Part shown: one piece after another, positions 1 to 30,716 of the stretch | Numbering within the stretch: position 1 is the first letter of the stretch | Layout of the letters: the number at the start of each line of letters is the position of its first letter | Source of the DNA: a virus | Direction: 5' to 3' (one strand) | DNA: 41,013 nucleotides | Virus genome (UHGV): UHGV-1836508 | Notes under the pieces: generated by a model | Told to the model about the DNA's origin: nothing | Database searches by the model: none | Seen by the model: the letters and a program-made list of their open reading frames with translations, nothing else | Translations under genes and position numbers: made by a program

Positions 1-958
1 CGTCTGACTCTCTGGCTACCTGAACAAGCAAGCCAGTAACACCAGAATAATCTACTGTGTAATAACGTTCACCTTCTTCACCTTCCGATCCGCTCGCACC
101 GTCCTGATATTTCATTGCGGAACCTACAACTTCTGGGATTGCTTCCAGAGCTTCCTGTGCAATGACACCAGCATAGGGCATACCGTTTTCTTTAAGCGTG
201 TATGTATAGCCGTTCATTTTACGGATGCGGTCGGTTGCATTATCGATCACCTGAATGTTGTCTTTCAGATCCCGGTCGGAATGCTGGTTAAATGCGGTGG
301 CATGACATGCACCATTAACGCTTAACATATAGGTGTTATCGGTATTTTTCTGCGCATAGAACATATAAGCGCCACCATCAACACCGACTTCATAAACAAC
401 AGGACGGCTGGAATTTCCCCATAATAACGTCGACACACCAGAATACGCCGTACCTTGCGTGTTTAGTGTCATGGTCGACCCGTGATTAGCATATTTGATC
501 TGCAATGAGTCTGTATTATCAAACTTAATAAGCGCGTTACTTCCCCGCACACCATACGACATGAGACAGTTCCCCATCTTAAGGTAACCATCACTGCCTG
601 GAAAAATTAAAGTTCCTCCGTAAAGATCACTAAAGTCCCAAAAGATACCTTTTGTCCCGTTATGTGTGACGATCCTCGTCATTGTATCTTTAGTACCATC
701 AATATTTTTTCTGGTATATATGTCACTATAAGCGTTTTCCGTTTCACCAGTCTTATTTGACAAATGCAGCTTACCGCTGAATATAGTTCCAGTTGTTGGC
801 AATGTTTTTTGATCATAGATTACATTGCAATAACCATTCCATGTTGTTTTATTGTCTACATAAGATTTTGTTGCGTAGTTTCCTTGATCGGTTTTTAATT
901 TGCTAACGTCGGATTTTAGCGTTTTGATATCATCAGGAATTACTGTCGATGTAGCCAT
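1..958 (-). CDS. tail fibre / receptor-binding protein, partial (N-terminal 319 codons; 3' end beyond window start) with intramolecular-chaperone (peptidase S74-type) motif
   Basis: Minus-strand frame is open from ATG at 958 (SD GGAAGGAAA just upstream, in-frame stop at 968-970) down to position 2 with no stop, checked triplet by triplet. Product contains SDRDLKDNIQVIDNATDRIRKMNGYTYTL...GVIAQEALEAIPEVV, the hallmark start of tail-fibre C-terminal intramolecular chaperone domains. Absent from the ORF track only because its stop lies outside the window. Confidence 0.7.
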   Translation of the reverse strand, partial: MATSTVIPDDIKTLKSDVSKLKTDQGNYATKSYVDNKTTWNGYCNVIYDQKTLPTTGTIFSGKLHLSNKTGETENAYSDIYTRKNIDGTKDTMTRIVTHNGTKGIFWDFSDLYGGTLIFPGSDGYLKMGNCLMSYGVRGSNALIKFDNTDSLQIKYANHGSTMTLNTQGTAYSGVSTLLWGNSSRPVVYEVGVDGGAYMFYAQKNTDNTYMLSVNGACHATAFNQHSDRDLKDNIQVIDNATDRIRKMNGYTYTLKENGMPYAGVIAQEALEAIPEVVGSAMKYQDGASGSEGEEGERYYTVDYSGVTGLLVQVARESD

Positions 959-967
959 TTTCCTTCC

Positions 968-1249
968 TCACATCCAGCCACGAAGTTGATGCTCAACAGC
1001 AACCGCGTATTCATCGAATAATGACGGTGTTTTCACATCATTAATGATGCGCACGTTTACAAAATATCCGTCTTCCTTAACACATACCGGTTCGCCATCT
1101 TCAGTCAGTTCTCCGGTTTCTTTGTACACGTTACCTATCACGTCAATAAGAATATCATCCTGCATCGACTCGTCATCATAATAGCCAGTGCTATCCATAA
1201 AGGCCGAAAAGTCGGCCCTGTCTTCAAATTTGAGTGTTAAATCTTTCAT
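968..1249 (-). CDS. hypothetical acidic 93-aa protein between the two fibre genes (possible fibre assembly factor)
   Basis: ATG at 1249 overlaps the upstream fibre stop (TAATG); stop at 968-970 sits 10 nt before the next fibre start. No recognisable motif. Confidence 0.5.
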   Translation of the reverse strand: MKDLTLKFEDRADFSAFMDSTGYYDDESMQDDILIDVIGNVYKETGELTEDGEPVCVKEDGYFVNVRIINDVKTPSLFDEYAVAVEHQLRGWM

Positions 1250-3615
1250 TAGATTGACTCCCCCATCTGAGCATCAGTCAATGCCTTGTGCCATATTCTG
1301 AAATTCCTGATATGACCAAATAAATGGCGTAACCCGGCTGTAGTCTGGCCTCCAATACGGATAATTGCGGAGTTCTGAATATATGACCATGTGGTTTTTG
1401 TTTCGCTGGATATACGCCCGTTACTTACTGAGCACGTAGACTGATCTGACTTTACACGCATCCCCATAACCATTTTTTCAAGCGATGCGTTTTCGTTTAC
1501 CCGTCTGTTAGCCAAACCTATATCACAATAAGGAAATCCGTCGTAATCTGTTGAACGACCGAAGCCAAGAATAATAGCCGCTCCGGTTTGATGACCGCCG
1601 GTATCAAAAACACGCGGTGCTGCATTTGGCGTTTTATACCAGTTCTTATGTACCTCACAAAGAACTGTAAAAGGAAGATTATAAAGGTTATTCTTGATTG
1701 GGACTGTCACCATATCGCTTGCGCGAGTGCTTGCAGTTATATCAGTTACAATAAATGACGAAGCACTTGATCCACCTTCCACTTGTGGAGTTGCGATATC
1801 CAGATAGTCTCCGGATACTGTGCTTGAACCTTTTACAGGAGCGTACTGAACCATCGCACCAATCATGCTCTCAGTATCCAGTGCATTAATTGTAGCCTGG
1901 AAGAAAATCCAACCAGTAGCCTCATCTTTTACTGCCTTTGAAATAATACGATTTGCAGCACCACCAGTTAGTTCAATTAAAAGTGTTGATAAATTGAGGT
2001 AAGCATCTCCCAAAAAAGTGTAAGTAGAACCATCATGATGTTCAAATCTTAAACGACACCTTATATTTTCAACATCACTTCTGACACGGCATGAAATGGT
2101 CACATATTTTTCATCACCTGTGACATCAAATCCTTTACTGCCAGAAACCGTTACGATACTAATCGCACTTGTTTGACCAATAAGAGTATCTTTTACAGTA
2201 AATCTACCATAAGTAAAATTAAAAGAATCCGTGGATATTTCTGTGAGTTCCAGATTGCTTGACTTATTCCATTTAGATGGATTTGTTGAATTAAGCAGAA
2301 GATTAGTTCTTTGCCCCTCAATAAGCAGGCCATCACGTTCAAATCGTGGCTCGTCAATGGCAGCCTCTGTCAGCACACCAGATTTATTAATATAGGTTGC
2401 TTTCGATGCGCGTTTAAACTTTACAACCTTATCGCCAGGCATCGTTATTTCATCATCACCAATAACAATCTTTTTATATGACGGCGAAAAGCCCGTAATC
2501 ATATCCAGTGAATCGTTAAACGGTATCCACACATCGGGAAGCGGCTGCAAAACTTGTTTATACGGCTCCGCAGCCTGGTTTGCATACTCTCTGGCTGCGT
2601 CTTCACTCGCTTTTGCAGCCGTCTGGCTTGCAGCGGATGCTTTCGCCGAGTTAGCCGCCGCAGTCTCGCTCGCCTTTGCGTTGGTTTCACTGGTTTTTGC
2701 AGCTTTTTGACTGTTGGCTGATGCAGTGGCAGAAGCAGCCGCCGCACTTGCAGAACCAGCTGCGGCACTCTCGCTTTGGGCTGCTGCATCCTGACTGCTT
2801 TTCGCCGCAGTTTCGCTGGCTTTAGCATTCGTTTCGCTGGTCTTCGCTGCCGTCTGGCTGGACTTTGCGTTAGTTTCACTCGTCTTCGCTGCTTTCTGGC
2901 TATTAGCCGCCGCAGTTGCTGATCCAGCTGCTGAAGTCGCAGAACCGGCTGCCGCACTCTCGCTTTCAGCTGCTGCATCCTGACTGCTTTTTGCTGCGGT
3001 AGCGGAGTTGGCGGCAGCACTCTGACTCGATTTTGCAGCTGCCTCGCTATTTTTCGCATTAGTTTCGCTGGTCTTTGAAGCTGTCTCACTCGCTTTTGAG
3101 TTAGTTTCTGATTTTTTGGCCGCTGTTGCGCTCGCTGCCGCCTCTTTAGCTTTTTGTGCAGCGGTGTTAATTATGGGAGTATTTTCTTTATACCATTCTA
3201 GGTTCTCATTGTGCTCATTAACGATCTGCGTAAGGGATTTTACGGTTAATTCCGTGCCATCTTCACGCTCAATTGTTATTTCATCCACAGCAGTCAGCCA
3301 ACTACGCATCATTTTTGAATCGGCTGACATGCGAGACATAAGCGCAGTAAAACGAGCACTAAATTGGGTCAAATCACCTTCATAGGTCGTAATTATTCTG
3401 CACGGAACATTTGTTTGGGTGCTGCCACCGTAGGCTTCAACAAGAGTTAACGAAGTGTCACTCTCGATTGATTTTATTTCATATAACTTATTATCGGGGC
3501 CAATCAATATCATACCTGGAAGGACGCCGTTCGCCGTCACTCCCCATGCTGTGCCTGTTCCCACTACAGTTTTATTTCCTTTAGTGAGATTTATTGTACC
3601 TTCCCTGTACCACAT
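1249..3615 (-). CDS. side tail fibre protein (lambda Stf-like) with Ala/Ser/Thr-rich repeats
   Basis: 788 aa directly downstream of J. Central region is built of repeated KTSETNAK / AAKSSQ / SATAA units, very like the alanine-rich repeats of lambda Stf-type fibres. ATG at 3613-3615. Confidence 0.8.
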   Translation of the reverse strand: MWYREGTINLTKGNKTVVGTGTAWGVTANGVLPGMILIGPDNKLYEIKSIESDTSLTLVEAYGGSTQTNVPCRIITTYEGDLTQFSARFTALMSRMSADSKMMRSWLTAVDEITIEREDGTELTVKSLTQIVNEHNENLEWYKENTPIINTAAQKAKEAAASATAAKKSETNSKASETASKTSETNAKNSEAAAKSSQSAAANSATAAKSSQDAAAESESAAAGSATSAAGSATAAANSQKAAKTSETNAKSSQTAAKTSETNAKASETAAKSSQDAAAQSESAAAGSASAAAASATASANSQKAAKTSETNAKASETAAANSAKASAASQTAAKASEDAAREYANQAAEPYKQVLQPLPDVWIPFNDSLDMITGFSPSYKKIVIGDDEITMPGDKVVKFKRASKATYINKSGVLTEAAIDEPRFERDGLLIEGQRTNLLLNSTNPSKWNKSSNLELTEISTDSFNFTYGRFTVKDTLIGQTSAISIVTVSGSKGFDVTGDEKYVTISCRVRSDVENIRCRLRFEHHDGSTYTFLGDAYLNLSTLLIELTGGAANRIISKAVKDEATGWIFFQATINALDTESMIGAMVQYAPVKGSSTVSGDYLDIATPQVEGGSSASSFIVTDITASTRASDMVTVPIKNNLYNLPFTVLCEVHKNWYKTPNAAPRVFDTGGHQTGAAIILGFGRSTDYDGFPYCDIGLANRRVNENASLEKMVMGMRVKSDQSTCSVSNGRISSETKTTWSYIQNSAIIRIGGQTTAGLRHLFGHIRNFRIWHKALTDAQMGESI
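2560..3140. repeat. in-frame tandem coding repeats (Ala/Ser/Thr-rich) inside the side tail fibre gene
   Basis: Reiterated gc(a/c)gc / agcgaaac / ctggct units at DNA level give repeated SETNAK-AAKSSQ peptide units; this also generates spurious ORFs in other frames. Confidence 0.7.
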
Positions 3616-3708
3616 TTATCCTTTGCTCCTAGATATGGTGGGCGTTCCATGCCCACCATTAAGTTAGTACCTACCTATTTTTACAGAAATGATTATTTTT
3701 TTCCACAA

Positions 3709-6700
3709 TCAAAGCCGACCAATCCTCACTCGAAGGACATTATTGTCATCATAAACGTCAATCCTCTGACCATTTATAACCAATCTCCCATTGCCGCCAC
3801 TATTGCCGTTGATCTCAAGCGTTCCATTTTTACCAAATCGCCATCCGGCTCGTCCGCTTACGAAGTTTGTTGATTGCAAGTCACCTACCTTTGCATTTGT
3901 GATAGTACCATCCTTAATATACGCACCATTCATGTATGCAACGCTGTTTTCGATAACAAATGGTGTGGTGATCTTTCCGTTAACTGAGTTAACTAGACCA
4001 AATCGATCTGCTTGCACCAAAAACTGGGAAAGCCCCGTGGTGTCAATTCCAAGCGCAATACCTGCGACATATTTTTGCCCACCACTTGTTGACGTTTCCA
4101 TCTTCAACGTCCACGCGGTTGAAACCTTTTTGTTAGTATCAGCAATAGCAGTTGCCTGCTCTTGAATTGTCGCTGTATTTCCATCAACTGATGCTTTTAA
4201 GGTGTCAATTCGTCCACTTAGAGCATTGTCGGCGTTTGTGCGCACAGTCGCCTCAGACGTAATCGCGGCATTAATATCTTTGCTCGTTTGCGCCTGTAGA
4301 TTAGTGATGCTAGAAGCCAAAGCCGAATCAGCGTCAGTTCTGGCTTTCGTCTCTTCTGCTACAGCCGCCTTAATATCTTTACCCGTCTGGCTCTTCAATG
4401 TGGTTATCTGTTGTGCTAAAGATTCATCAGCAGTTGCTCGGGCAATTTTTTCTTCAGATATAGCTGCACTAATATCGCCTTCAATTTTGGCTTGTAACGA
4501 TAGTATTTCTTTTGAAAGTGCTTCATCGGCACTAGCTCGTGCCTCTTGTTCACTCACAATTGCGGCAGAAATATCATCGTTAATCTTTGATTCAAGTTTG
4601 GTGATTCTGCTTGCAATAGCATTATCAGCATCTACACGAGCCGTTGTTTCTTCAGTGATTGAAGCTCTGATATCCTCATTTATTTCAGCGCGAATTTCCT
4701 CCATTTTCGTAGCCATTGCAGATATATCGTCTGCAAAAGCCTTCTGAGTTGTGGTGATCTTCGCATTACTCACCATCTGCTTGTGCTGATCTTCATCCTG
4801 ACGCAAAGCAAGATCGATGTTTGTTTTAGCCAATGCCTCAATGTTTGTCGTAACTTCGGCACTAGAACGTTCAACTTCAGCCACGGTTTTTTTCATTTCT
4901 TCAATGGTGGCTAAACTGCTATCTACAGTTGACTTCATCGCCTCGATTTCTTTCGCGTTTGCCAAGTCACCCTCAACTCGTGCTTCACGCTCCTCCGCAA
5001 TTAAAGCCGATGAATTGTCAAGTGCTGCATTTGCCGCCTCAACAGCTCCAGCTACAGCTTTACCCTGCTCTGATACAGTTTCCTGCAACTGAATTAAGGC
5101 AGCGTTAGAGTTTGCAACCTCCTTAAGTGCGTCTTCCACCTTGCTGACAGTACCGGAAACTTCCGTTTTAAGATTGTTTTGAGCTTCTTCAAGCCGCTGA
5201 TCGGCATCTGTAAATTTGTCATCGAGGATTTTCAGACTTTCTTCCATCTGTTGATAGATGGAATCCACCGCCTCCTGAGATACTTTTGAGTCGATTTCCT
5301 CAAGTAAAGTCTGGCCAAGTTCAGAAGACGTAATTTTGCCTGTCAGGAACGACAGCACATCGCGAGTCGTCGCCTCTGTACCCAAGTTTGAGTTCGGAGG
5401 ACTCAACATACCGCGCTTGTTTGACGCACGAACCCAGTAATACCACGTTTCGCTATCCCCAAGACCAGCATGTGTAAAGGTGGTGCTTGCAGACTCTGCG
5501 ATCAGTTTCGCTGTATCCAGATTGTTGGTCTGGGATGCGTAAACATTAATGTGATCAAGGTCTACCGAATCTGGATTAACCCAATTCAGTATCACATTAC
5601 GATAGTCTCCAACGGCTGTTAATGACGTTGGGGCATCTGGCGGTGTCATTGTGCCCAGCACCTGATAAACGGTACTGATAATCTCTGTTTTTTTACCGTT
5701 GAATGAAACCGCATACAGCTGGAAGTCGTAGCGTCCATTCTCCGCGACATTAACGATTTCGTATTGCTCTTCGGTTACACGCGCCGATTGCCAGTTCGAT
5801 ACATTGTTTGCATCAGAACGTCGCCAACTGATCCAATACTCTGGAGATTTCCCTTCCCATGTTGCAGTCAGTTTTACTGACAGGTTGCCCGGGCTTGAGA
5901 GATAAGTCCCTTCAGTGATTTGCAAATTAGACGGCTTGGAATAAGTCGGGTCCAATACCGTCGTATTCTGCGGGATAAGCGTTGCACCATTGTCGATCGC
6001 CTCATATTTAGACGGATTGTTCTCAACAGCGGTGATGTCAAAGCTACCCGGCGTTTCCCCCTGTGCTATGTTAACAATGCGAACGCGCATAGGTTCGAGG
6101 TCTGGTTCTGTAATAGTCCAGACGCCGTTCAAAACAGGCGTTTCAGCCGAAGACAGGGCTTTTGAAAACGTAACTTTTGTTATATTTTCGCCAGTTTCAA
6201 GAACATCGCGTTCAACGATTTTGCCTTCCTGATTCAGTATTCGAATAAAGCAGCCGCCTTTGGCTAACGACACAGGCGCATCGAGTGTGACGCTGTTTTT
6301 GGTAAACGCCACAATTCGACCTGAGTTACGTTTGCCTGCGCGATATTTGTTCTGAATCAGAACGGTTTCACCAGGCATCAAAAATGACGCGTCTAAGCCG
6401 GCAGTAAATGTAATTACATCCGACTCCATTCTGGCGGTATATAAAAGCCACAAACCAACTCGGTGAGCCTGCCCTCGGCTTGTACAGCCAAATGCCACGA
6501 CTTCTGTCTTACGCTCACCATAACGGCGCATTGCGTCCTGATCTTCAACGTACTCGATGTTTTGCTTATAACCGTCCTCCTTGTTGTTGTAGGTTACGAG
6601 CGCAACGGATGGGCGATCTTTACGCGCAGAACCTTTATAGGTAAACAATCCATCTTTGACGTTAGAGTTGGTAAACATCATTACCGGATCTGACGGGCTA

Positions 6701-16471: not shown

Positions 16472-16526
16472 TGATGGAAAACTCCTTTTTCCGTTAATTC
16501 TACGCATTCATTGCGCTAATAGTAAG

Positions 16527-16554
16527 TATATACTTACTAATTGAGTTAATTCAA
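16527..16554 (-). promoter_or_regulatory. candidate sigma70-type promoter for the major tail gene (TTGAAT - 16 bp - TATATA)
   Basis: Hexamers read on minus strand; the -10 lies in the perfect palindrome TAGTAAGTATATACTTACTA. Confidence 0.4.
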
Positions 16555-21934: not shown

Positions 21935-23509
21935 TCACTCGTTCTCTTGAGTAGATGAGTCCCCATTCCCTCGGGGTTGATCTTGCCCGCTTTCTTGGGC
22001 TGCACCACGATCATAAGTAAGTACTGACTTATTTTCAAGGGTATTTAGATCATTTTTTGGAGGAAAATTCAAGAGATCTTTATCAAATTCCTTTTTCATC
22101 GCCTCAGTAATGTTCGGGAAAATCTTCTCAATAAGCATTTCCATCTGGTGACGACGTACAGAGTCCGGTGCCTGAAGTAATGACAGTTTCTCGGCAACAG
22201 AAAATTCATCAGTAAGGCCACGAATATCGAAACTTTCTGGATATGCAATTAAAGAGTGGTCTTCGTCCAGATCTACCCCCATCCATTTCGCAACCAGTAG
22301 CATGATTTGGCGTTCAGCCCTTTCCAGACGCTCTGCTTTTGTGACAAGCAAGCTATTTACACGCTGGAAGTCATACATTTTTGCGGCACCAGATGAATTA
22401 TCGATTCCCTGTGCGTTGTCCTGCTTCGTTCGCTCACCAGCTACACCAACTGAATGGTAGATTTCGTTAATCACCGTCTTAATCGTAGTGATGATCATCT
22501 GAGCTTGTTTCGGGTCTGGTGACAGATAAAACGGCTGGTTTCCACCTTCAGAATCGTAGGTGAAGACTCGCTTTGTGCCCATTTCAAGCACTTTAGTGTG
22601 GTTTTCATCACCAGGTAAAAGCGACTGTACCGGTATAGCCAACTGGCTAAATGTCTGATCCTGAATAATGGCATCAAGGTTTGACAGATAGTTTGCAACC
22701 GCACGATCAAGATAAGCGATATCATCGATCAACGATGGGCTGAAATACGGTGATTCACTTTCTCCAATACAATCAACAGGAAACACAGGAACTACGCCGA
22801 GATTATGCTCACCGCTATCCTCTAAAATTACTTTTGCCTGACGGCGACCTGCTCCACCAGCGCCCTTCTTCACTTCCTCACGGAACAGATACCACTCGTT
22901 TTGTGTCCACAGACGATAACGTTGGTATTCCTGACCTGTAGAAGTAAAAGGATCTGCGTCATCACGAGCGACTTCCACAATTAACGCCCACAACATATTC
23001 CCGTCGTCGTCCCATGCCACATCCAGCATTTGCTGAGGTGAAATCCAGTAGGCGTAGGCGCGAGCATCTTTCTTTTTCTCGTCAGCTACTGACTCAACAT
23101 CACCACTCATCGTGCTATCGACAACAACCCATATGCGACCGTAAATAGACGACTGCAAATCAATAGCGGCCATAAATGAGTCAATAGAGGCATTCTGGCG
23201 AGTCGCACGTTTCCAGAAATTGCGGATCTGCTCTGGTGCCTCTTCGATATTTCTATGAATGTCTTCTTTAAAGAGATATTTGTTGATGAGGTTTACCACC
23301 TCACGAGTGTGGTTGAAGCGATAAGCACGTTCAACTCGCTCCTTAAACTCCTGATCTCCCTCTTTAAAGTAACGAAAGATATTGTCTGTAAACCAACCAC
23401 GCCCGCCAGCGTAAGTGCTGGCGAGGAAGTCCCAATGTTCTTTTTTCTTTTCGTATTCCGGGTGGCGTCGCGCCACCAGATCCTTAATTTGTTTGTCGTT
23501 CAATTCCAT
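21935..23509 (-). CDS. portal protein
   Basis: 524 aa directly downstream of the terminase large subunit; size and position. Confidence 0.8.
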   Translation of the reverse strand: MELNDKQIKDLVARRHPEYEKKKEHWDFLASTYAGGRGWFTDNIFRYFKEGDQEFKERVERAYRFNHTREVVNLINKYLFKEDIHRNIEEAPEQIRNFWKRATRQNASIDSFMAAIDLQSSIYGRIWVVVDSTMSGDVESVADEKKKDARAYAYWISPQQMLDVAWDDDGNMLWALIVEVARDDADPFTSTGQEYQRYRLWTQNEWYLFREEVKKGAGGAGRRQAKVILEDSGEHNLGVVPVFPVDCIGESESPYFSPSLIDDIAYLDRAVANYLSNLDAIIQDQTFSQLAIPVQSLLPGDENHTKVLEMGTKRVFTYDSEGGNQPFYLSPDPKQAQMIITTIKTVINEIYHSVGVAGERTKQDNAQGIDNSSGAAKMYDFQRVNSLLVTKAERLERAERQIMLLVAKWMGVDLDEDHSLIAYPESFDIRGLTDEFSVAEKLSLLQAPDSVRRHQMEMLIEKIFPNITEAMKKEFDKDLLNFPPKNDLNTLENKSVLTYDRGAAQESGQDQPRGNGDSSTQENE

Positions 23510-23535: not shown

Positions 23536-24792
23536 CTATCGAGAACCACCAAGAATAACACGGTTTTTGACTGGATACCTACGATGTACTGGATAGCCCA
23601 ATGCGTCTGCACTATGCTCAATGCCACCTGTCTTATCCATATCTCGTGTTCCAGGCTTGTAGATGACTTTTTCCAGTGAATCAATCAAATGCTTGCACTT
23701 CGGATCGATATACAGCCGGATATCTCCAGATGCGGTCATCAGCATTCGGTTAACAGCATTAACACGATCCGCAATTGGCGGGTGCTTTTTCGAATAATCG
23801 ACACGTAAGAATCCCTTCTCTTTGAATATGTCGACGTCAGACTCCCCGCGAGCATGTTGGCGATAAGCACCTGCCGGATCTGGAAATACCGTTATCTGTG
23901 ATTTCCAGCGCCAGAAGCGTCTCTCAAGCTCATCACAAACCTCTGCCGTGTTAGAGGAAAAGAGCACCAATTCATCAATTGCCCATAGCTCACCATTTGG
24001 CTGAGGTTGCAAAATTACTGAAGACATCGGGTCAATGTTGAAGTCCTGCCCTACCCATATAGGCAACCGAGGGTTGAACTGAAGCGGTTTTACATGCACG
24101 TTACGATCGAACGGGTAGTAAACGCGCCCGGACATGTTCTCAAAGCTCGCCAGGTACTCCTGAGCGAACGATTTCGGGTCCATATCGTTCTTAGCAGCTT
24201 CAATTTCCGCCGTAGGTACAAACGGAGAATCGGCAGTTACAAACTGCCAGCTCTTCCACTGTCCCTTTCTTTGCAGCTCTACGTTCTGGCCTATAGTCCA
24301 CAGTTTGTGAAATTCCGAGAAGCCTTTTGGCGTACCAATGATCAGTGCACCGCCGCGTGTCGATGAAAGAGTAGGTCGTAACACCTTGTACCAGGTGTCA
24401 GCCTTCATATCCTGAAATTCATCAAGCACTACAAAATGCAACGCTACGCCGCGCAGAGTGTCAGGCTTATCAGCACCTTTGAGGGCGATCTCCGAACCGT
24501 TCTTCAACACGATTGTCATCGTGGTGTCGTTCTTTTTCCTAACCCACTTACGAGGCAGAACTTCCTGTAGATCGTCCCACAAAATCTGGCGAGCCATCTG
24601 GTAAGTAGGAGCGACATACCAGACTCTTTGCTTTTTTTCCTTTGCCGCCGCACGAATAATAGTGGAGATCGACAACCGGGATTTTCCCCAGCGTCGACCA
24701 GCACAAACAACTTTAAATCGATGCGGAGACTGGAAGACTTTCATCTGTCCAGAATGCAGTTGCACAAGACTGAGCGAGGACGGGATTGCCAT
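23536..24792 (-). CDS. terminase large subunit
   Basis: Walker A …VVCAGRRWGKSRLS… and Walker B VVLDEFQDM in the N-terminal ATPase half; position before portal. Confidence 0.85.
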   Translation of the reverse strand: MAIPSSLSLVQLHSGQMKVFQSPHRFKVVCAGRRWGKSRLSISTIIRAAAKEKKQRVWYVAPTYQMARQILWDDLQEVLPRKWVRKKNDTTMTIVLKNGSEIALKGADKPDTLRGVALHFVVLDEFQDMKADTWYKVLRPTLSSTRGGALIIGTPKGFSEFHKLWTIGQNVELQRKGQWKSWQFVTADSPFVPTAEIEAAKNDMDPKSFAQEYLASFENMSGRVYYPFDRNVHVKPLQFNPRLPIWVGQDFNIDPMSSVILQPQPNGELWAIDELVLFSSNTAEVCDELERRFWRWKSQITVFPDPAGAYRQHARGESDVDIFKEKGFLRVDYSKKHPPIADRVNAVNRMLMTASGDIRLYIDPKCKHLIDSLEKVIYKPGTRDMDKTGGIEHSADALGYPVHRRYPVKNRVILGGSR

Positions 24793-25424
24793 TATTCGTC
24801 CTCCCCTTCAATTCCATCATCTGTCGCATCAAATTCGCTTAGAGCTTCTTCTTCCAACGTCTCAAGCAATTCGTCATCGATGATTTCAGGCTCGTCGTCT
24901 TCCTGACGTAATTTCGCCACCTGGGAAGGCGTAAGCTCACCAAATACCAGGTTCGGAATTTCTTCCTCGTCATTTTCCGCATGATCCATGCCCAATGCTT
25001 TGGACGAAACTTCAAAGCATTTTGCAAGGGTATTACTGGCTCTCTGTAAGCTCTTGAGAGAATCCTCAATCGCCCCTAAAGGCTTACCCTCACGTTTGGC
25101 CGTAGTGACTTCGACCATCACCATCTGCCCCAACGCATACGCCCAGCCGTCATAACGTGTACGACGTTCTTCTATCTTTTCCGCACGGGCTTTAGCGCGA
25201 AGCTCTGCGTCAGATTTAAGAGACTCACGAACCATCTTCCCAACAGAGTCCGCGCCTTTCTCTAATCCTCGCTTTTTGAAATGTCTGGAGAGTGTTTCAC
25301 GACGAATGCCGTACTCTTCCTCCAGCTTTGAGAGTGTATATTCGCCTGACGTCCATTTGGCTTCAGCTTCGGCCCACTCCGCTGGTGTCAGGCGAGTTTT
25401 TACCTCGTCTTTTTCGACCGTCAT
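24792..25424 (-). CDS. terminase small subunit (putative)
   Basis: 210 aa, HTH-like N-terminus (YTLSKLEEEYGIRRETLSRHFKKRG), acidic C-terminal tail, stop overlaps large-subunit ATG (TAATG). Confidence 0.6.
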   Translation of the reverse strand: MTVEKDEVKTRLTPAEWAEAEAKWTSGEYTLSKLEEEYGIRRETLSRHFKKRGLEKGADSVGKMVRESLKSDAELRAKARAEKIEERRTRYDGWAYALGQMVMVEVTTAKREGKPLGAIEDSLKSLQRASNTLAKCFEVSSKALGMDHAENDEEEIPNLVFGELTPSQVAKLRQEDDEPEIIDDELLETLEEEALSEFDATDDGIEGEDE

Positions 25425-25443
25425 AGATCCCTCTAAAACACAC

Positions 25444-25463
25444 AGAGCGCGTCCATGCGCTCT
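25444..25463 (-). other. leader hairpin immediately upstream of the terminase small subunit RBS
   Basis: AGAGCGC-gtccat-GCGCTCT, 15-20 nt before the SD. Confidence 0.5.
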
Positions 25464-25507
25464 AAAACAACTTGTTTACTGCATCTGCTAACCAACTTGT
25501 TTTCTGG
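25464..25507 (-). promoter_or_regulatory. two copies of the shared palindromic leader element (AAACAAGTTGTTT type) upstream of the terminase genes
   Basis: Plus strand aaaacaacttgttta (25464-25478) and accaacttgttttctgg (25491-25507); same element as in the early-gene leaders. Confidence 0.5.
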
Positions 25508-25549
25508 GGTGTTTAATTAGGTCTGGCATGTCTTACGAAGCCTGCTTCC

Positions 25550-25586
25550 GTATATATTTAATAAGTTACTTATTATTTATATATAC
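25550..25586. promoter_or_regulatory. 37-bp AT-rich nested inverted repeat upstream of the terminase genes
   Basis: gtatatat-tt-aataag-tta-cttatt-att-atatatac; outer arms gtatatat/atatatac and inner arms aataag/cttatt. Confidence 0.5.
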
Positions 25587-25619
25587 AGATGCAGGTCTTT
25601 AAATAAGCTCCCAGACCGA

Positions 25620-25886
25620 TTACATCACCAGTAACTTCGCTTTGGCTCGACCTAAAGTGGTTAACCCAAGAGTCCGGCGGTGATAGCGATTGTCACTGCG
25701 TTGGCGCGTATGCCCTTTCTCCACCAGCCCCTTTTTTATCAGAGCGCGAATTGAGAACTGGATACTTTGCTTGGTTGTCTTGTACGGCAAAACTTCAAGC
25801 AATTCGTCCAGGTCAAGTAGATGACCTCGCTCATAACCGAGATTGAGCGTTTTGATGATGTCCTTTTGTTTATCGGTTAACGTCAT
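25620..25886 (-). CDS. small winged-helix-like DNA-binding protein (putative regulator)
   Basis: 88 aa, basic C-terminus, helix-turn-wing pattern (…QSIQFSIRALIKKGLVEKGHTRQRSDNRYHRRTLGLT…); SD AAGGA 7 nt before the ATG; last gene of the ParB operon. Confidence 0.45.
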   Translation of the reverse strand: MTLTDKQKDIIKTLNLGYERGHLLDLDELLEVLPYKTTKQSIQFSIRALIKKGLVEKGHTRQRSDNRYHRRTLGLTTLGRAKAKLLVM

Positions 25887-25895
25887 GGCAAATCC

Positions 25896-26786
25896 TTATG
25901 CCGGTAAAGCAATTTCTAACGGTTTATCCAAAGGTTGTTTGTCGAATGCCAGCAGTGGCAGCGTGTCAGGCAGTCGACGGCCAAAGTCAGGGTTTCGGTA
26001 CACACCATACAACGGAGACGTAAAGCTCAGGTTGTGAATGTCCTTGAGCAGCTTCACAATGCTGGCCTCGTCCACCAGACTGTCGGCAATGTCCTGAATC
26101 GTCGTGCCACGATTCCGCCCAGCTTTTGCCAGGGAACTGTTCTTATGGTAGTCCGCCACCAAATCGCGCAGCGCACGGCGACGACGAGACTCGCTCATAG
26201 CGAACAACTCTTTGACGATCGCCTCGTTATCACCCGGGTCGGAGCGGAAATGGCGCTGGAACACACGCAGTGCACTTTCATAGCTCTTCGGTCGCTCAGG
26301 GCGGATGAACTTAAACCCTGCTTTCATGGCGAAGGGATTGTATTTGCTCATCGAGGACTGGATCTCAATGATTGGCCGGTCATGCATCCTGCTAACCAGG
26401 TTAATCATTCTATAAGAGACGCCTACGCCACGATACTGAGTATCCACAACTGAGCGACTGATCACCGCAAAGTTGTTATTCACGTACCGACCCCAGTACT
26501 GGTTAGCCACGGTGGTATTAGTGGTTGGTTTCAACTTAGGAAACATGCGGTGGCGAGGTGCCAACAGTAGTTTCGGGTAAGCCATAACCACGACGCCCAC
26601 CAGACGGTCATCAAGTTCGCAGCGATAGTAAGTTGGCGCGAAAGGTTTGCCGTCTGTTTTGTAGTGAAGCGACTTAAGAGCGTGCCAGTCCTCTACAGTT
26701 CCCTTTGTAACAGTCATTCGCTCCAGAAAGTCCAGATGACGCGGAAACTCTTCAGGGCGGTAGCGTTTAATGATGATGTCCGTCAT
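25896..26786 (-). CDS. GNAT-like acyltransferase-fold protein with C-terminal extension
   Basis: GNAT motif A-like QYRGVGVSYRMI preceded by hydrophobic strands, and motif B-like YNPFAMKAGFKFI; about 130 extra C-terminal residues. ATG overlaps the ATPase stop (ATGA). Confidence 0.5.
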   Translation of the reverse strand: MTDIIIKRYRPEEFPRHLDFLERMTVTKGTVEDWHALKSLHYKTDGKPFAPTYYRCELDDRLVGVVVMAYPKLLLAPRHRMFPKLKPTTNTTVANQYWGRYVNNNFAVISRSVVDTQYRGVGVSYRMINLVSRMHDRPIIEIQSSMSKYNPFAMKAGFKFIRPERPKSYESALRVFQRHFRSDPGDNEAIVKELFAMSESRRRRALRDLVADYHKNSSLAKAGRNRGTTIQDIADSLVDEASIVKLLKDIHNLSFTSPLYGVYRNPDFGRRLPDTLPLLAFDKQPLDKPLEIALPA

Positions 26787-27448
26787 GAATGGACCTCATC
26801 ATGACTACCATTGTGATATTCCACCTTCACGCGTTCTTTGTAGTGCTTGGTGATCTGCATATCAGGGCGCAGCGCGTTCTTCAGGTCTTCGTGAGTCGTC
26901 GCCACCATTACCGTCGCACCAACCTTTCGAGCGGCACGCTGGAGGTTAGACGCCACAACCTGAGCGGTTACACGGTCGAGAACAGCGCCGAACTCGTCAG
27001 CAGCCCATACTTTAGCGCCTGACTCAATCAGTTTGGCAATCTTGAGACGATATTTCTGGCCGTCTGACATTTCAGAAGGCTTGCGAACAAACAGATATGC
27101 ATCGTTCAGACCAGCCATAGATAACAACCCAAGCGCATCACTGGTCGTTTTGCCCAACTGATCGATGACGTTAACCTCATTATCGAAGGTAAAATCATCG
27201 ATGGAGGCTACAGACAGCCCTTCATCCTTCATCTGTCGTTGCAACTCGCGCAGCACAACGGATTTGCCGGAACCGGATTGGCCGGTGATGTACACCACAT
27301 CGCCCTGCTTCACTTCCAGCTCCAGATTGTCGTAAAGCGTCCACTCTTTTTCGTCCAGGCCAAGCCCGAACGACTCAGCGATTTCCAACGTGCGCGTGGT
27401 TTTATTTACGCGTGTCTGAAACGATACGTTGATGATGTATTTGCTCAT
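26783..27448 (-). CDS. stand-alone ABC-type ATPase (nucleotide-binding domain only)
   Basis: Walker A GQSGSGKS, ABC signature MSDGQ, Walker B VWAADEF, H-loop TTHED; no transmembrane segment; ATGA overlaps on both sides. Confidence 0.75.
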   Translation of the reverse strand: MSKYIINVSFQTRVNKTTRTLEIAESFGLGLDEKEWTLYDNLELEVKQGDVVYITGQSGSGKSVVLRELQRQMKDEGLSVASIDDFTFDNEVNVIDQLGKTTSDALGLLSMAGLNDAYLFVRKPSEMSDGQKYRLKIAKLIESGAKVWAADEFGAVLDRVTAQVVASNLQRAARKVGATVMVATTHEDLKNALRPDMQITKHYKERVKVEYHNGSHDEVHS

Positions 27449-28113
27449 GCAGCCATCTCCCCGGAAGAGATCTTCTCCGCATATGCCACAAATGCGTCTA
27501 CCCCGCTTTCTCCCGTCATTTCTTCCATATGGGCAAGCAAATCACCAACAACAATGGCAGAGCCAGCAGGGAGCGTTTTAAAGCCCAATACGTCGACAAC
27601 ACGTACTTCTTCCGCTGCAACTTCACGACTGATCTCGGTGTGTTCATCCTTCTGTCGTTTAGTTTCTTCGCCAAGATCGATAACTAGCGAGTCGGTGTCC
27701 ATTTCTTCTGTCATACTGCCAACGAGAACATTCAACTCACGCTCTTCAAAGCCGAAAACCTCAATATCGTCCAGAACAAGCGACTCAAGCTCTTTCTGTA
27801 GCTTAATTGCATCGTAATCAATGCTGGCAAGTCGGTTATCTTCAAGGCGCTTCGCACGAACCTCGTCATCACTCAGATCATCACGAACAATAACCGGTAC
27901 GCGCTCAAGTCCAGCAAAAATTGCAGCCTCACGGCGGCCGTGGCCAGTAATAATTACGTCGTTCTTATCGACCGTAATTGGCTGGTCAAATCCGCGCTTT
28001 TTAATGGCTGCGGCCAAATCTCTGATCTGCTGTTCATCATGCTTTTTGGCATTCATCTCATAGGGAATAAGATCTGCCGGGTCGCGATATACGATTTCAA
28101 ACTTTTTGGTCAT
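27445..28113 (-). CDS. ParB/Srx-fold (ParB N-terminal domain) protein, paralogue 2
   Basis: …VIITGHGRREAAIFAGLERVPVIV… matches the ParB arginine-rich motif; ATG at 28113 overlaps the upstream stop (ATGA). Confidence 0.75.
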   Translation of the reverse strand: MTKKFEIVYRDPADLIPYEMNAKKHDEQQIRDLAAAIKKRGFDQPITVDKNDVIITGHGRREAAIFAGLERVPVIVRDDLSDDEVRAKRLEDNRLASIDYDAIKLQKELESLVLDDIEVFGFEERELNVLVGSMTEEMDTDSLVIDLGEETKRQKDEHTEISREVAAEEVRVVDVLGFKTLPAGSAIVVGDLLAHMEEMTGESGVDAFVAYAEKISSGEMAA

Positions 28114-28811
28114 TACATACGCTCCTTGTAGTAGTCGACCAGCCACACCAGAGCCTCACCAGCGTTCTCCATTTCATTACCGGTGTTAATAGCCTGCTCT
28201 TTGATGATGTTTTTTATGGTTTCTGCAACACGATCTGACGCATCGAAAGTTACTTTGAAGCGCATGGTCTGATGTTCCGCACCCACACGTTCGGTTTTCT
28301 CTCGTTTGTCGGTATCGACAGGCTCATCACTACCACGAGACAACGCCTCCAGTGCTTCAAGGTCGATTGCCGCCTCTTTTGCTAAAACCATCGAGATTTC
28401 GTCGTCATACGGGGCGATTTCAGACAGTTGATAGTCAAGTTCTGACTGAATTTCTTCAATGAAGCGTTGCAATGCGATTTGGTCGTCTTCACCGTATCGC
28501 TCGTTGTCCACCAGTGACATCTGTTTAGCTACGACATCGCTAATTTTGCCCACAGAAAGCACCGGAACCGTTGAAATTCCTTGCTCAATAGCAGCACGCC
28601 AGCGATGTTCACCGCCGAGGATTTCAAAAAATCCATCTTCAAGTTCACGAGCCAAAATTGGCTTAAAAAAGCCCAATTTTTCGATAGAACCTTTCAGTTT
28701 TTCAAAATTCTGCGCACCAACCGAATTGGTGTTCCAGGTATTCGGGCGAAGGTTGGCAACATCAACCTGCAAAATCGTGATTTTTACATCCATTTTATTG
28801 CTACAATCCAC
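28113..28811 (-). CDS. ParB/Srx-fold (ParB N-terminal domain) protein, paralogue 1
   Basis: …EILGGEHRWRAAIEQGISTVPVL… is close to the canonical ParB GERRxRAA box. Start uncertain (GTG 28811 or ATG 28793), both with weak SD. Confidence 0.7.
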   Translation of the reverse strand: MDCSNKMDVKITILQVDVANLRPNTWNTNSVGAQNFEKLKGSIEKLGFFKPILARELEDGFFEILGGEHRWRAAIEQGISTVPVLSVGKISDVVAKQMSLVDNERYGEDDQIALQRFIEEIQSELDYQLSEIAPYDDEISMVLAKEAAIDLEALEALSRGSDEPVDTDKREKTERVGAEHQTMRFKVTFDASDRVAETIKNIIKEQAINTGNEMENAGEALVWLVDYYKERM

Positions 28812-28875
28812 TAAGTAATCACTTACTTATTATAATAGCCAAATAACATACAAAAGGCACTAAGGAAAGAGGTTT

Positions 28876-30435
28876 ATGACTGTTCGGATTGTATCTAACG
28901 CAGTAAATGCGCTTATTTCTGGCGCAGATGACAAGGTAAAGCAACTGGTGCAGCAAATGTTGAGCTACGAAGTCGAGACTGGCGACTGGAAGGGCACAAG
29001 CACGATGTTCAACTGGAGTAAAAACTCGTTCCCTGCTGGCTTTGCCAAGCCTGTAGCGGCGAACTTGAACAAGGCGGGCATCAAATGTGTTCATATCCGC
29101 AAAGACAAAGCCCCGGCGCTTGGTAAACCAAATCCGGCGGTTAACCCATTCCCATACAATCCTGATTATGCGTATCAGGATCAGACTGTGGAAACACTGG
29201 TTCGAGAGGGAATGATGATTGCGCAGATCGCTACTGGTGGCGGGAAATCTAACGTTGCCTGCAAAGCAGCTGCACGTATCGGTCGAATGACATTATTTTT
29301 AACAACCCGCTCTGTTCTGATGTTTCAAATGGCCGAAAACTTCCAGAGATCCATCGACTACCGCGCCGAAAATGGCGAACCGTGGTTAAAAGACCAAAAG
29401 GTTGGAGTCATTGGCTCGGGTGAGTTCCAGGTATCACGACATATCAACGTCGCTACAGTTCAAACTCTTGCAAGTTTCCTCGAAGAACCACCACGCGATG
29501 CAACACCAGATAAAAAGAGCTACCACCTCAAACGTCGGGAGTTGGTGAAACGCTTCCTTTCAAGTGTGTCTCTGCTTATTCTGGAAGAAGCGCATGAGTC
29601 TTCAGGTTCTAATTTCTATGACATTGCCAGATTATGTGTGAACGCAGACTATCGTCTGGCGCTTACAGCCACGCCGTTCATGAAGGATTCGACGGAAGCC
29701 AACATGCGCCTGATGGCGGTGGCCGGGCGAATTGAAATTAAAGTCACAGAAAAGTACCTGATTGATCGAGGCATTCTGGCAAAGCCGTACTTCCTTTATC
29801 ATAAAGTTGCCTACAAGCCAGACGAGGCCAGAATCAAGGCCGAACTTGCCAACAAACACCTCAATTTTAGAGTTGGTATGAGCACCGCCTACCAAAAGGC
29901 TTATCAGTTGGGGATCGTGTATAATTTGGGACGTAACGAGGCCATAGTGCGCGAGGCATTGCTTTATAAGCAACATTCACTCAACTGCATGACTCTGGTT
30001 CGTCTTAAACGCCACGGGCAAATCCTGATGGAGATGATGAAGGAGTCAGGTCTTAAAGTTGATTTCATCTATGGGGAATCTAACCAGACGACAAGGCAAG
30101 CAAAGCTGAATAGTTTAGCGTCTGGTGAAATAGATGTTTTAATAGGCTCGACTATTCTGGATGTCGGTGTTGATGTACCAAGCGTTGGTGCGGTCATTCT
30201 GGCTGGTGGTGGAAAAGCAGAAGTTGAAATGAGGCAGCGTGTCGGTCGTGGCTTACGAGCCAAAAAAAATCAGGCAAACGTGTGTTTTATCACTGATTTC
30301 ATTGACATTAGCAACAAATACCTGTTGTCTCACTCTTATGAGCGAAAACACATCATCGACACCACACCTGGCTTTGCAGAAGGTGTATTGCCTATTGATG
30401 GAGCATTCGATTTTGGAGTTCTGAAACGAGATTAG
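28876..30435 (+). CDS. superfamily 2 (DEAD/DEAH-type) helicase
   Basis: Motif I IATGGGKS, motif II LLILEEAHE, motif III LTATPF, motifs V/VI …DVLIGSTILDVGVDVPS…QRVGRGLR; strong SD TAAGGAAAGAGG. Confidence 0.85.
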   Translation: MTVRIVSNAVNALISGADDKVKQLVQQMLSYEVETGDWKGTSTMFNWSKNSFPAGFAKPVAANLNKAGIKCVHIRKDKAPALGKPNPAVNPFPYNPDYAYQDQTVETLVREGMMIAQIATGGGKSNVACKAAARIGRMTLFLTTRSVLMFQMAENFQRSIDYRAENGEPWLKDQKVGVIGSGEFQVSRHINVATVQTLASFLEEPPRDATPDKKSYHLKRRELVKRFLSSVSLLILEEAHESSGSNFYDIARLCVNADYRLALTATPFMKDSTEANMRLMAVAGRIEIKVTEKYLIDRGILAKPYFLYHKVAYKPDEARIKAELANKHLNFRVGMSTAYQKAYQLGIVYNLGRNEAIVREALLYKQHSLNCMTLVRLKRHGQILMEMMKESGLKVDFIYGESNQTTRQAKLNSLASGEIDVLIGSTILDVGVDVPSVGAVILAGGGKAEVEMRQRVGRGLRAKKNQANVCFITDFIDISNKYLLSHSYERKHIIDTTPGFAEGVLPIDGAFDFGVLKRD

Positions 30436-30437
30436 TT

Positions 30438-30716
30438 ATGAGCGAAAAGAAAACAACTTATTGCCAGGTGGCATTGTCTGATAAGGCCAATGAAAAACTT
30501 GGAAAATTCCAAATAAAACTCAAAGAGAAAAAAATCAAGATGTCTAAGGCTGAAGTTATCAATGCCATTCTGGAGACGATGACTATGGCTGAATTTGACA
30601 AAGTCACATCTGCCGTTGGGGTTTCCGCTAAGACGCGTGAGAAAATCATGCGCATCTATGAAAACTCCAATATGACAAAAAAAGATCTAGAGGAAATACT
30701 GAGCAGGTTGCCGTAA
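30438..30716 (+). CDS. hypothetical 92-aa protein (Lys-rich)
   Basis: ATG 2 nt after the helicase stop, so likely coupled; no recognisable motif. Confidence 0.5.
   Translation: MSEKKTTYCQVALSDKANEKLGKFQIKLKEKKIKMSKAEVINAILETMTMAEFDKVTSAVGVSAKTREKIMRIYENSNMTKKDLEEILSRLP

Follow-up and report, generated by a model that had tools for sequence, protein, structure and literature searches.

ATP-binding cassette (ABC) ATPases joined to an acetyltransferase-like domain of the GNAT superfamily form a family that was predicted by Iyer, Zhang, Burroughs and Aravind (2013 NAR) to acylate a base in DNA, a prediction restated in 2021 in a passage of PMC7824862 that gives Tenacibaculum phage pT24 as an example. 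Proteins of the ParB fold provide a second point of reference. Their domains bind CTP, ATP or GTP and occur in fusions, often with methyltransferases and in some cases with acetyltransferases, and in prophages a ParB-fold module is found joined to a DNA-modifying enzyme (PMC12704722). A phage ParB that lacks a helix-turn-helix (HTH) domain is required in vivo for the activity of the clade-E thymine dioxygenase (5mYOX) (10.1101/2025.08.14.668559; published as PMC13229309). Here we describe a five-gene operon on the minus strand, at positions 25620-28811, of the viral genome UHGV-1836508, which was analysed as one stretch of 41,013 nucleotides (the window). The operon encodes two ParB paralogues (ParB1 and ParB2), a stand-alone ABC ATPase, a GNAT-like protein and a winged helix-turn-helix (wHTH) protein, and it lies upstream of the terminase genes. 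We propose, at a probability of about one half, that it is a putative late, ParB-assisted, ATP-driven module for the acylation of a DNA base.

A profile of the GNAT-like protein retrieved 905 relatives among 1.84 billion representative proteins, many of them 450-500 aa long, with the GNAT-like part at about residues 200-480 and an ABC domain, recognised by Pfam, in front. The GNAT profile matched the C-terminal halves of ABC-containing proteins of this length with E-values of 1e-15 to 1e-27, and the profile of the window ABC ATPase matched the fused proteins with E-values of 1e-68 to 1e-82. A profile of the fused proteins themselves collected at least 2,114 proteins, with members in Thermoproteota, Nitrososphaerota, Bathyarchaeia and Firmicutes. 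Since the two proteins form a single polypeptide in these relatives (ABC~GNAT hereafter), and since motifs are common to the window pair and the fused proteins along the whole length (the N-terminal FGLG.DE, Walker A, the signature, the H-loop and the GNAT motifs), we regard the two window genes as the halves of one enzyme. The pair belongs to the published family because gp38 of pT24 matches the fused-family profile (E 1.8e-38); gp38 also matches the window ABC profile (E 1.8e-24) and was found by tblastn. In IMG and in the record of Escherichia phage Cyrano the name given is ‘ABC-type ATPase with predicted acetyltransferase domain’ (COG2401, MK0520). The original prediction, made from the letters of the window, had stated that the five-gene combination maps to nothing known; this was overstated, as the ABC and GNAT genes represent the described COG2401 family in split form. 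By sequence comparison the window module is a further member of a family known by prediction only, with split genes, a duplicated ParB and a dedicated wHTH gene. No experimental report on any ABC~GNAT member was found in the literature searched, and no characterised phage with a defined function for the operon was found.

The strongest single argument that the module modifies DNA comes from the Sourvirus genus, in which the slot between ParB and terminase holds ABC~GNAT and a formyltransferase in Gordonia phage Axumite (locus L114 of our collection, bases 1-4200) and oxidoreductases and a kinase in phage CaiB (L120, bases 1-4200). The CaiB cassette is reported as TET/JBP thymine hypermodification in its genome announcement, and the swap suggests that ABC~GNAT does the same kind of job. 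A tblastn search with a fused protein gave 78 phage records, and the contexts of a subset were inspected. In Axumite, ParB (gp1) is followed by ABC~GNAT (gp2), a Formyl_trans_N protein (gp3) and terminase (gp4), with overlaps of 4 nt at the first junctions and of 14 nt between gp3 and terminase. Axumite gp3 (L114, 1805-2452) is annotated as a tRNA methyltransferase, yet matches PF00551 (E 1e-8). The succession of ParB and ABC~GNAT upstream of terminase recurs in unrelated Gordonia, Leptospira, Pasteurella and Streptococcus phages. Leptospira phage LE4 has a ParB-like gp14 and ABC~GNAT gp15, then three small genes, the large terminase gene (TerL), a small open reading frame (ORF) and portal, while Pasteurella phage Pmp13 has ParB, ABC~GNAT, a small gene, the small terminase gene (TerS), TerL and portal. 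Streptococcus prophage 315.4 carries ParB, ABC, a small gene, ASCH, a DUF5681 protein, TerL and portal, and the ParB adjoining its ABC gene is of the ParB2 type (ParB2 profile, E 2.5e-37).

Enzymes that act on small molecules or amines accompany ABC~GNAT in further lineages. In the Mu-like Burkholderia phage phiE255 and in Porphyromonas phages, ABC~GNAT and then a formyltransferase stand after the tail genes; in phiE255 ABC~GNAT comes after the tail-fibre genes, which is where Mu keeps mom. A Formyl_trans_N gene directly follows ABC~GNAT in three unrelated phages (Axumite gp3; phiE255 gp30, L118, 5044-5658; a Porphyromonas phage, L119, 5023-5496), which suggests that the adduct has a free amine to which a formyl group is then added. 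The prophages of Desulfofarcimen acetoxidans (L110, 11542-13328) and Heliorestis convoluta (L111, 11534-13338) instead have Amidoligase_2 and GGACT/AIG2 genes between ABC~GNAT and TerL, in the order ABC~GNAT, Amidoligase_2, a small gene, GGACT (gamma-glutamyl cyclotransferase), TerL and portal; in D. acetoxidans two more genes (SocA_Panacea and an unannotated ORF) precede TerL. The trio of ABC~GNAT, amidoligase and GGACT resembles the protect-transfer-deprotect logic of side-chain attachment in butirosin. In archaeal-type viral contigs the fused gene stands directly after TerL at 41 of 78 loci and before a small ORF and TerL at three. ParB, ABC and GNAT form one polypeptide at a single locus (L107), and the annotation of the jumbo phage pT24 lists no terminase gene within the ~12.7 kb around ABC~GNAT. 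When 138 non-clustered genes beside the fused gene in viral contigs were searched against Pfam, no partner family stood out as dominant.

In two thaumarchaeal proviruses (L112 and L113; Nitrososphaerota) the viral genes end, at the border with host genes, in the fused ABC~GNAT gene and a small gene for an SNase-like nuclease. We considered whether the fused gene at contig ends marks a genome terminus and set this aside, one thaumarchaeal provirus having the gene at the provirus/host junction; trimmed provirus boundaries probably explain its position at the ends of viral (IMG/VR) contigs.

The domain calls of the original prediction for all five proteins were borne out by Pfam, AlphaFold2 (AF2) models and Foldseek, and each motif that it quoted (GGEHRWRAA, GHGRREAA, GQSGSGKS, MSDGQ, VWAADEF and TTHED) was found in the sequence. 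The GNAT-like protein has a sub-threshold Pfam GNAT match (E 0.037) and a confident AF2 model (predicted local distance difference test score, pLDDT, 87). It combines the GNAT fold with the pyrophosphate loop that marks the superfamily (Q/R-x-x-G-x-G/A), and its assignment to this fold was upheld. The coenzyme A (CoA)-pyrophosphate loop reads R119-G-V-G122-V-S, with R-x-x-G-x-S/G invariant and RGIGLG in the fused relatives. What had been described as a tail of about 130 aa is mainly a helical insertion of ~85 aa (about residues 169-254), after which the AF2 model places further strands (259-264 and 275-277). Mom, the DNA-modifying protein of phage Mu, is among the best structural matches of the model in PDB and BFVD, and a Mom homologue ranks second among predicted viral structures. 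Neither of the two Pfam matches at E-values up to 0.1 was to the Mom family, and the protein had no match in NCBIfam, PADLOC or PDB sequences. A reading as a toxin of a GNAT toxin/antitoxin pair was set aside: such toxins have ~170 aa, whereas this protein has 296 aa and its gene is coupled to that of the ABC ATPase, and the KacT-type pair of Cyrano lies elsewhere.

The ABC ATPase is a minimal nucleotide-binding domain in which Walker A (GQSGSGKS), the signature (SDGQ), Walker B (AADEF, with the catalytic glutamate), the D-loop and the H-loop (TTHED) are conserved across 22 orthologues. It shows no terminase, ParA or SMC coiled-coil features. No terminase family was among the best 25 of its 41 Pfam matches, and in PHROGs only two terminase families matched, weakly (E 0.0023 and 0.007); it is thus neither a known terminase nor a known partition component. 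Annotation as an ABC transporter was rejected, there being no membrane component and the fused relatives carrying GNAT in place of transmembrane domains. In none of the five proteins did a stretch of 19 residues exceed a hydrophobicity of 1.5, the level taken as membrane-like.

For the wHTH protein AF2 predicts the topology H-(b)-H-H-b-b-H, and Foldseek against PDB returned APE_0880a, MepR, MarR and ZitR with probability 1.00 and TMq of 0.68-0.77. With 88 aa it lacks the full MarR dimerisation helices, and its membership is at the level of the fold rather than the family. The gene stands directly after the GNAT gene in 26 of 26 related loci, and an iterative search found a wHTH homologue in two distant viral contigs (L035 and L038) as well, where it stands directly upstream of the fused ABC~GNAT gene. 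The protein also weakly matches the C-terminal region of CARF3 models in PADLOC. Across the operon the PADLOC defence-system models gave domain-level matches only, namely the MTase_II ParB domain and generic P-loop ATPases.

ParB1 carries a ParB/Noc-like N-terminal nucleoside triphosphate (NTP)-binding domain with GGEHRW as box II, near-canonical and close to GERRxR, and DNERY as a box III-like motif. After this domain come an acidic linker and, at the C-terminus, a small beta-alpha-alpha element that is conserved. ParB2 has a variant box II (GHGRR) in which the glutamate and the first arginine are replaced. It matches the N-terminal region of PHROG 498 ‘DNA methyltransferase’ (E 5e-32) and the N-terminus of the PADLOC MTase_II model (E 2.7e-17), and these profile matches assign it to the type that forms the N-terminal part of phage ParB-methyltransferase fusions. 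The two proteins align as full-length paralogues (hhalign probability 98.9% over 200 columns, the C-terminal element included). The conserved beta-alpha-alpha element that ends both is, by its sequence pattern, possibly ribbon-helix-helix-like. In a profile search of PDB sequences only positions 6-100 of ParB1 matched Noc/ParB/Spo0J (best E 5.9e-14); no HTH domain was detected in either paralogue, the matches to solved ParB, Noc and Spo0J being confined to the N-terminal domain, and a regular-expression search found no ParA-binding motif [LFI]G[KR]G[LFI]. Both proteins have a long acidic linker, with net charges of -18 for ParB1 and -22 for ParB2. The GNAT-like (+15) and wHTH (+9) proteins are basic where the ParB paralogues are acidic. 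This contrast in charge suggests either electrostatic pairing in a complex or DNA mimicry by the ParB linkers.

The operon is part of an SSU5-like phage-plasmid. Over positions 25620-28811 the sequence shares 99.1% identity with Cyrano and 85% with Salmonella phage SSU5, Cyrano being pLF82, the SSU5-like phage-plasmid carried by E. coli LF82. Deposited records of SSU5, Cyrano and relatives already contain the operon with its genes annotated. All five minus-strand ORFs proposed earlier are present (Table 1). Their products match PHROG families 723, 930, 293, 886 and 900 (E 2e-46 to 1e-164). The order of helicase (on the opposite strand), ParB1, ParB2, ABC, GNAT-like, wHTH, TerS, TerL and portal is kept at 26 genome loci; because these PHROG families are populated and the array is syntenic in 26 genomes, the five genes are real and not chance ORFs, and the array is a real operon. 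The 26 loci, many on contigs of 100-115 kb, span Enterobacterales, Vibrionaceae, Halomonas and many Alphaproteobacteria, with GNAT identity dropping to ~40%, and the same array occurs in phages of 105-122 kb of Pseudomonas, Rhizobium, Stenotrophomonas and Xanthomonas. The GC content of the operon (0.45-0.53) is like that of the structural genes and unlike that of the low-GC accessory region beyond 30 kb. These comparisons point to the operon as a vertically inherited core module of the SSU5-like lineage.

Table 1 Positions of the operon genes and neighbouring features in the window, with the matches that identify them
Feature	Position	Strand	Description
ParB1	28113..28793	-	226 aa; Pfam ParB_N E 3.3e-13; PHROG 723 E 2e-79
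ParB2	27445..28113	-	222 aa; Pfam ParB_N E 1.5e-8; PHROG 930 E 1e-112
ABC ATPase	26783..27448	-	221 aa; stand-alone minimal nucleotide-binding domain; Pfam ABC_tran E 5.8e-13
GNAT-like protein	25896..26786	-	296 aa; GNAT fold; net charge +15
wHTH protein	25620..25886	-	88 aa; MarR-like core; net charge +9; AF2 pLDDT 80.5
Divergent intergenic region, helicase/ParB1	28812..28875	-	64 bp; AT-rich TATAAT-like stretch and palindrome
Spacer, operon/terminase	25425..25619	-	195 bp; palindrome TAAGTTACTTA at 25562-25572 in a long AT-rich inverted repeat
DEAD/UvsW-like helicase gene	28876-30435	+	divergent from the operon, flanking its ParB1 side
TerS, putative small terminase	24792-25424	-	PHROG 867; ‘Terminase small subunit’ in the Cyrano expression table
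TerL, large terminase	23536-24792	-	Pfam Terminase_6N E 3e-9; PHROG 2 / PHROG 10250
Portal	21935-23509	-	downstream of TerL

The most likely start of ParB1 is the ATG at 28793 rather than the GTG at 28811, because the Cyrano annotation and the alignment of homologues agree on it, and that of ParB2 is probably the ATG at 28113 and not the GTG at 28146. Of the ATGA overlaps proposed for three junctions, those of ParB2 with ABC and of ABC with GNAT are genuine; ParB1 and ParB2 meet in a TAATG with a 1-nt overlap. The GNAT and wHTH genes are separated by a 9-nt gap with an AAGGA Shine-Dalgarno sequence. SSU5 has an extra 84-aa ORF (SSU5_128; L002, 1235-1489) under the stretch that spans ABC and GNAT, and in Rhizobium phages RHph_N1_10, RHph_N1_15 and RHph_Y2_11 a DUF2829-domain gene lies under the same stretch, DUF2829 being the Tad2 anti-Thoeris family. 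Given these extra genes in some relatives, the coupling seen in the window is not universal.

Expression was read from the supplementary RNA-sequencing tables for LF82 (PMC9928086), which give normalised counts for one overnight LB culture of the lysogen. The five operon genes (CYRAN_119-123) have counts of 5.0, 9.5, 9.2, 8.0 and 7.8, against a prophage background median of 9.8, and the virion genes are alike (TerS 7.1, TerL 8.4, portal 9.8, capsid 7.4). The ParA/MinD-like gene CYRAN_99 reaches 92, the divergent helicase gene (CYRAN_118) 46 and CYRAN_117 114. The operon is therefore as silent as the virion genes during plasmid maintenance in the LF82 lysogen. CYRAN_117 is a 92-aa ORF at 30438-30716 in the window and is transcribed in the lysogen together with the helicase gene; as these two genes are transcribed and the operon is silent, the 64-bp intergenic region separates a lysogeny-active promoter from a silent one. 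This region, which contains the palindrome TAAGTAAGTGATTACTTA at 28812-28829, is likely to be the promoter/operator of the operon, while a generic sigma-70 scan called no promoter in it.

At the other end of the operon, a GC-rich terminator-like hairpin with a T-tract (25464-25443 on the minus strand) lies between the palindrome and the TerS start, ~20 nt before the latter, and the 195-bp spacer as a whole may hold a putative late promoter/operator and attenuator. With its palindrome and terminator-like hairpin, the spacer argues that the operon is its own unit and is not co-transcribed with the terminase genes by simple read-through. The order of promoter, terminator and late genes at TerS resembles that of late operons controlled by antitermination. 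The palindrome has the form TAAGT-N(0-8)-ACTTA, for which the window holds five matches at four sites where 0.22 would be expected. One site lies in front of ParB1 and one in front of TerS; the others are in or beside two further late-gene regions, at 16523-16536, in the intergenic gap 16508-16545, and at 22014-22031, within the 3' end of the portal gene and upstream of the next ORF. It stands at the same position just upstream of ParB1 in six relatives (L003, L006, L009, L011, L015 and L023) and is kept from Enterobacterales to Magnetospirillum-type or alphaproteobacterial genomes. Its placement suggests one shared late regulator, and it is probably a late-operon operator/promoter element or a parS-like site.

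Three other functions were weighed for the operon. Plasmid partition, with ParB1 and ParB2 as centromere-binding proteins and the ABC ATPase in place of ParA, would suit an element that is kept as a plasmid and encodes two ParB_N proteins, and it has a GenBank label (‘ParB-like partition protein’) and palindromic sites close by in its favour. The silence of the operon while the element is kept as a plasmid, at counts below the background median and with CYRAN_99 strongly expressed, removes this reading. Neither an HTH domain nor a ParA-binding motif was detected in the ParB paralogues, and the ABC domain differs from a ParA/Walker-type partition ATPase. The same module is present in integrated prophages (Streptococcus 315.4, D. 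acetoxidans and H. convoluta) and in Gordonia, Leptospira and Pasteurella phages, which are not known to be plasmids. We therefore rejected partition, on the LF82 expression data and the missing ParB features, as highly improbable. The ParA/MinD-like gene lies ~15 kb from the operon, which holds no ParA of its own. The Cyrano record OV696614 lists a DUF4942 protein (82935-84620), this lone ParA/MinD-like ATPase (89738-90838) and a methionyl-tRNA synthetase (90996-93029); the first two are outside the window and the last ends just inside its last ~100 bases. A ParB-like gene annotation is absent at 80-101.5 kb of OV696614, the region of the ParA-like gene.

A second alternative is a role as an accessory to packaging or DNA maturation. 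The ParB proteins and the ABC ATPase, which is Rad50/SMC-head-like in this proposal, would mark, bridge or process concatemers close to the packaging site and hand them over to TerS/TerL, with the GNAT domain being regulatory or acetylating a packaging protein. Terminase is a neighbour of these genes in several lineages that are not related to one another, and the gene order varies: in SSU5-like, Pasteurella, Leptospira, Gordonia and Streptococcus phages they stand upstream of TerS/TerL, and at the 41 viral loci noted above the fused gene lies directly downstream of TerL, often with overlap of stop and start codons; the vertical inheritance and structural-gene-like GC content of the module and the cis motif that it has in common with the TerS promoter region fit as well. 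Against this, the gene of phiE255 and the Porphyromonas phages sits at the far end of the tail module, paired with a formyltransferase instead of terminase, pT24 has no annotated terminase nearby, and the partners are small-molecule or amine-modifying enzymes. That CaiB fills the same slot with a reported DNA-hypermodification cassette shows the pre-terminase position to be used for DNA-modification genes. Moreover, the ABC domain comes without a coiled coil or a nuclease to partner it, and TerL has its own nuclease domain. We consider this role unlikely, and less likely than DNA acylation. Also doubtful is an acyltransferase for host takeover or anti-defence whose target is a protein of the host or of the virion, an aminoacyl-tRNA or a nucleotide used in signalling; the ABC ATPase would then clamp the substrate in an ATP-dependent manner, and the ParB proteins would serve as NTPases or in regulation. 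The generic GNAT fold is compatible with such targets, but the linkage and fusion to ParB, the linkage to wHTH and an ASCH gene two genes downstream in one prophage point to nucleic acid. Takeover would need early expression, of which the LF82 lysogen data, with the operon and the late structural genes silent alike, give no sign. The GNAT-like protein lacks a PADLOC or NCBIfam match, and strict vertical conservation is atypical of anti-defence genes, which turn over fast.

DNA-base acylation is thus the function that we favour. The original prediction had raised acyl transfer by GNAT to DNA, by analogy with Mom and for anti-restriction, as one plausible role, and the comparative evidence also favours this predicted function. 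After induction, ParB1 and ParB2 would act as NTP-gated, DNA-associated adaptors that bring the basic ABC/GNAT enzyme to replicated phage DNA or activate it there. ATP-driven dimerisation of the ABC domains may clamp, remodel or distort the DNA such that a base reaches the GNAT active site, where an acyl group would be moved from an acyl-CoA-type donor onto an exocyclic amine of the base. In the lineages with formyltransferase or amidoligase/gamma-glutamyl-cyclotransferase partners the adduct may carry a free amine that is later capped or processed. The wHTH protein could provide a sequence-specific DNA contact or control late promoters. The modified DNA would then be packaged and be protected from host restriction or another DNA-targeting defence at the next infection. 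ParB as the partner of a phage DNA-modifying enzyme has experimental precedent, because clade-E dioxygenases need ParB (10.1101/2025.08.14.668559). More tentatively, we suggest that the module writes a new ATP-dependent, ParB-assisted acyl mark on a phage DNA base just before packaging, and that this mark would be of an aminoacyl type, further processed, in the formyltransferase and amidoligase lineages.

If this is true, viral DNA receives an acyl mark from an enzyme of wide occurrence, which would be a new chemistry in the anti-restriction repertoire of phages: the fused form alone counts more than 2,000 relatives, spread over archaeal proviruses and phages of at least five bacterial phyla. 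The enzyme would be a candidate tool for DNA labelling, and many orphan ParB-like genes beside phage terminases would gain a mechanistic role, in a second case where ParB-fold proteins serve a DNA-modifying enzyme as cofactors. SSU5 and Cyrano would become the first genetically tractable E. coli/Salmonella models of a DNA modification predicted since 2013. The operon sits in inducible, tractable E. coli/Salmonella phages, which opens the old prediction to direct testing; should it prove wrong, the tight and recurrent association with terminase would speak for a packaging accessory that has so far escaped notice.

The operon was compared with several known systems. With ParABS and Noc it has in common the N-terminal ParB NTP-binding domain of ParB1 (Noc/ParB match, E 6e-14), but its ParB proteins lack an HTH, a ParA-binding motif and an adjacent ParA, and they are silent in the plasmid state. 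ParB2 matches the N-terminal ParB domain of the ParB-methyltransferase fusions (PHROG 498; PADLOC MTase_II PDLC03229), from which the operon differs in having no methyltransferase domain, a separate ParB and ABC/GNAT as the catalytic partner. TmcA and NAT10 are ATPase-coupled GNAT enzymes that make N4-acetylcytidine in RNA from acetyl-CoA; they offer an analogy only, with a helicase-like ATPase, a tRNA or rRNA substrate and homology limited to the GNAT fold. The likeness to Mom of phage Mu (PDB 8bv8), which uses a GNAT fold for DNA adenine modification, is likewise at the level of the fold, and Mom works without an ATPase or ParB partner, unlike the operon enzyme. The clade E 5mYOX system also sets an HTH-less ParB-fold protein, with NTP-binding and C-terminal domains, beside a DNA-modifying enzyme near terminase. 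Its enzyme is an Fe/2-oxoglutarate dioxygenase and its ParB is single, and CaiB carries such a cassette in the slot that ABC~GNAT occupies in Axumite. The closest system is the ABC ATPase-GNAT family itself, with which the window module agrees in the order of ABC then GNAT, in whole-length homology, in its phage or prophage context and, in several lineages, in a ParB neighbour; in the window separate, translationally coupled genes encode the two halves of the enzyme, the GNAT domain has its ~85-aa insertion, and the module is equipped with two ParB paralogues with a C-terminal element and with a dedicated wHTH gene.

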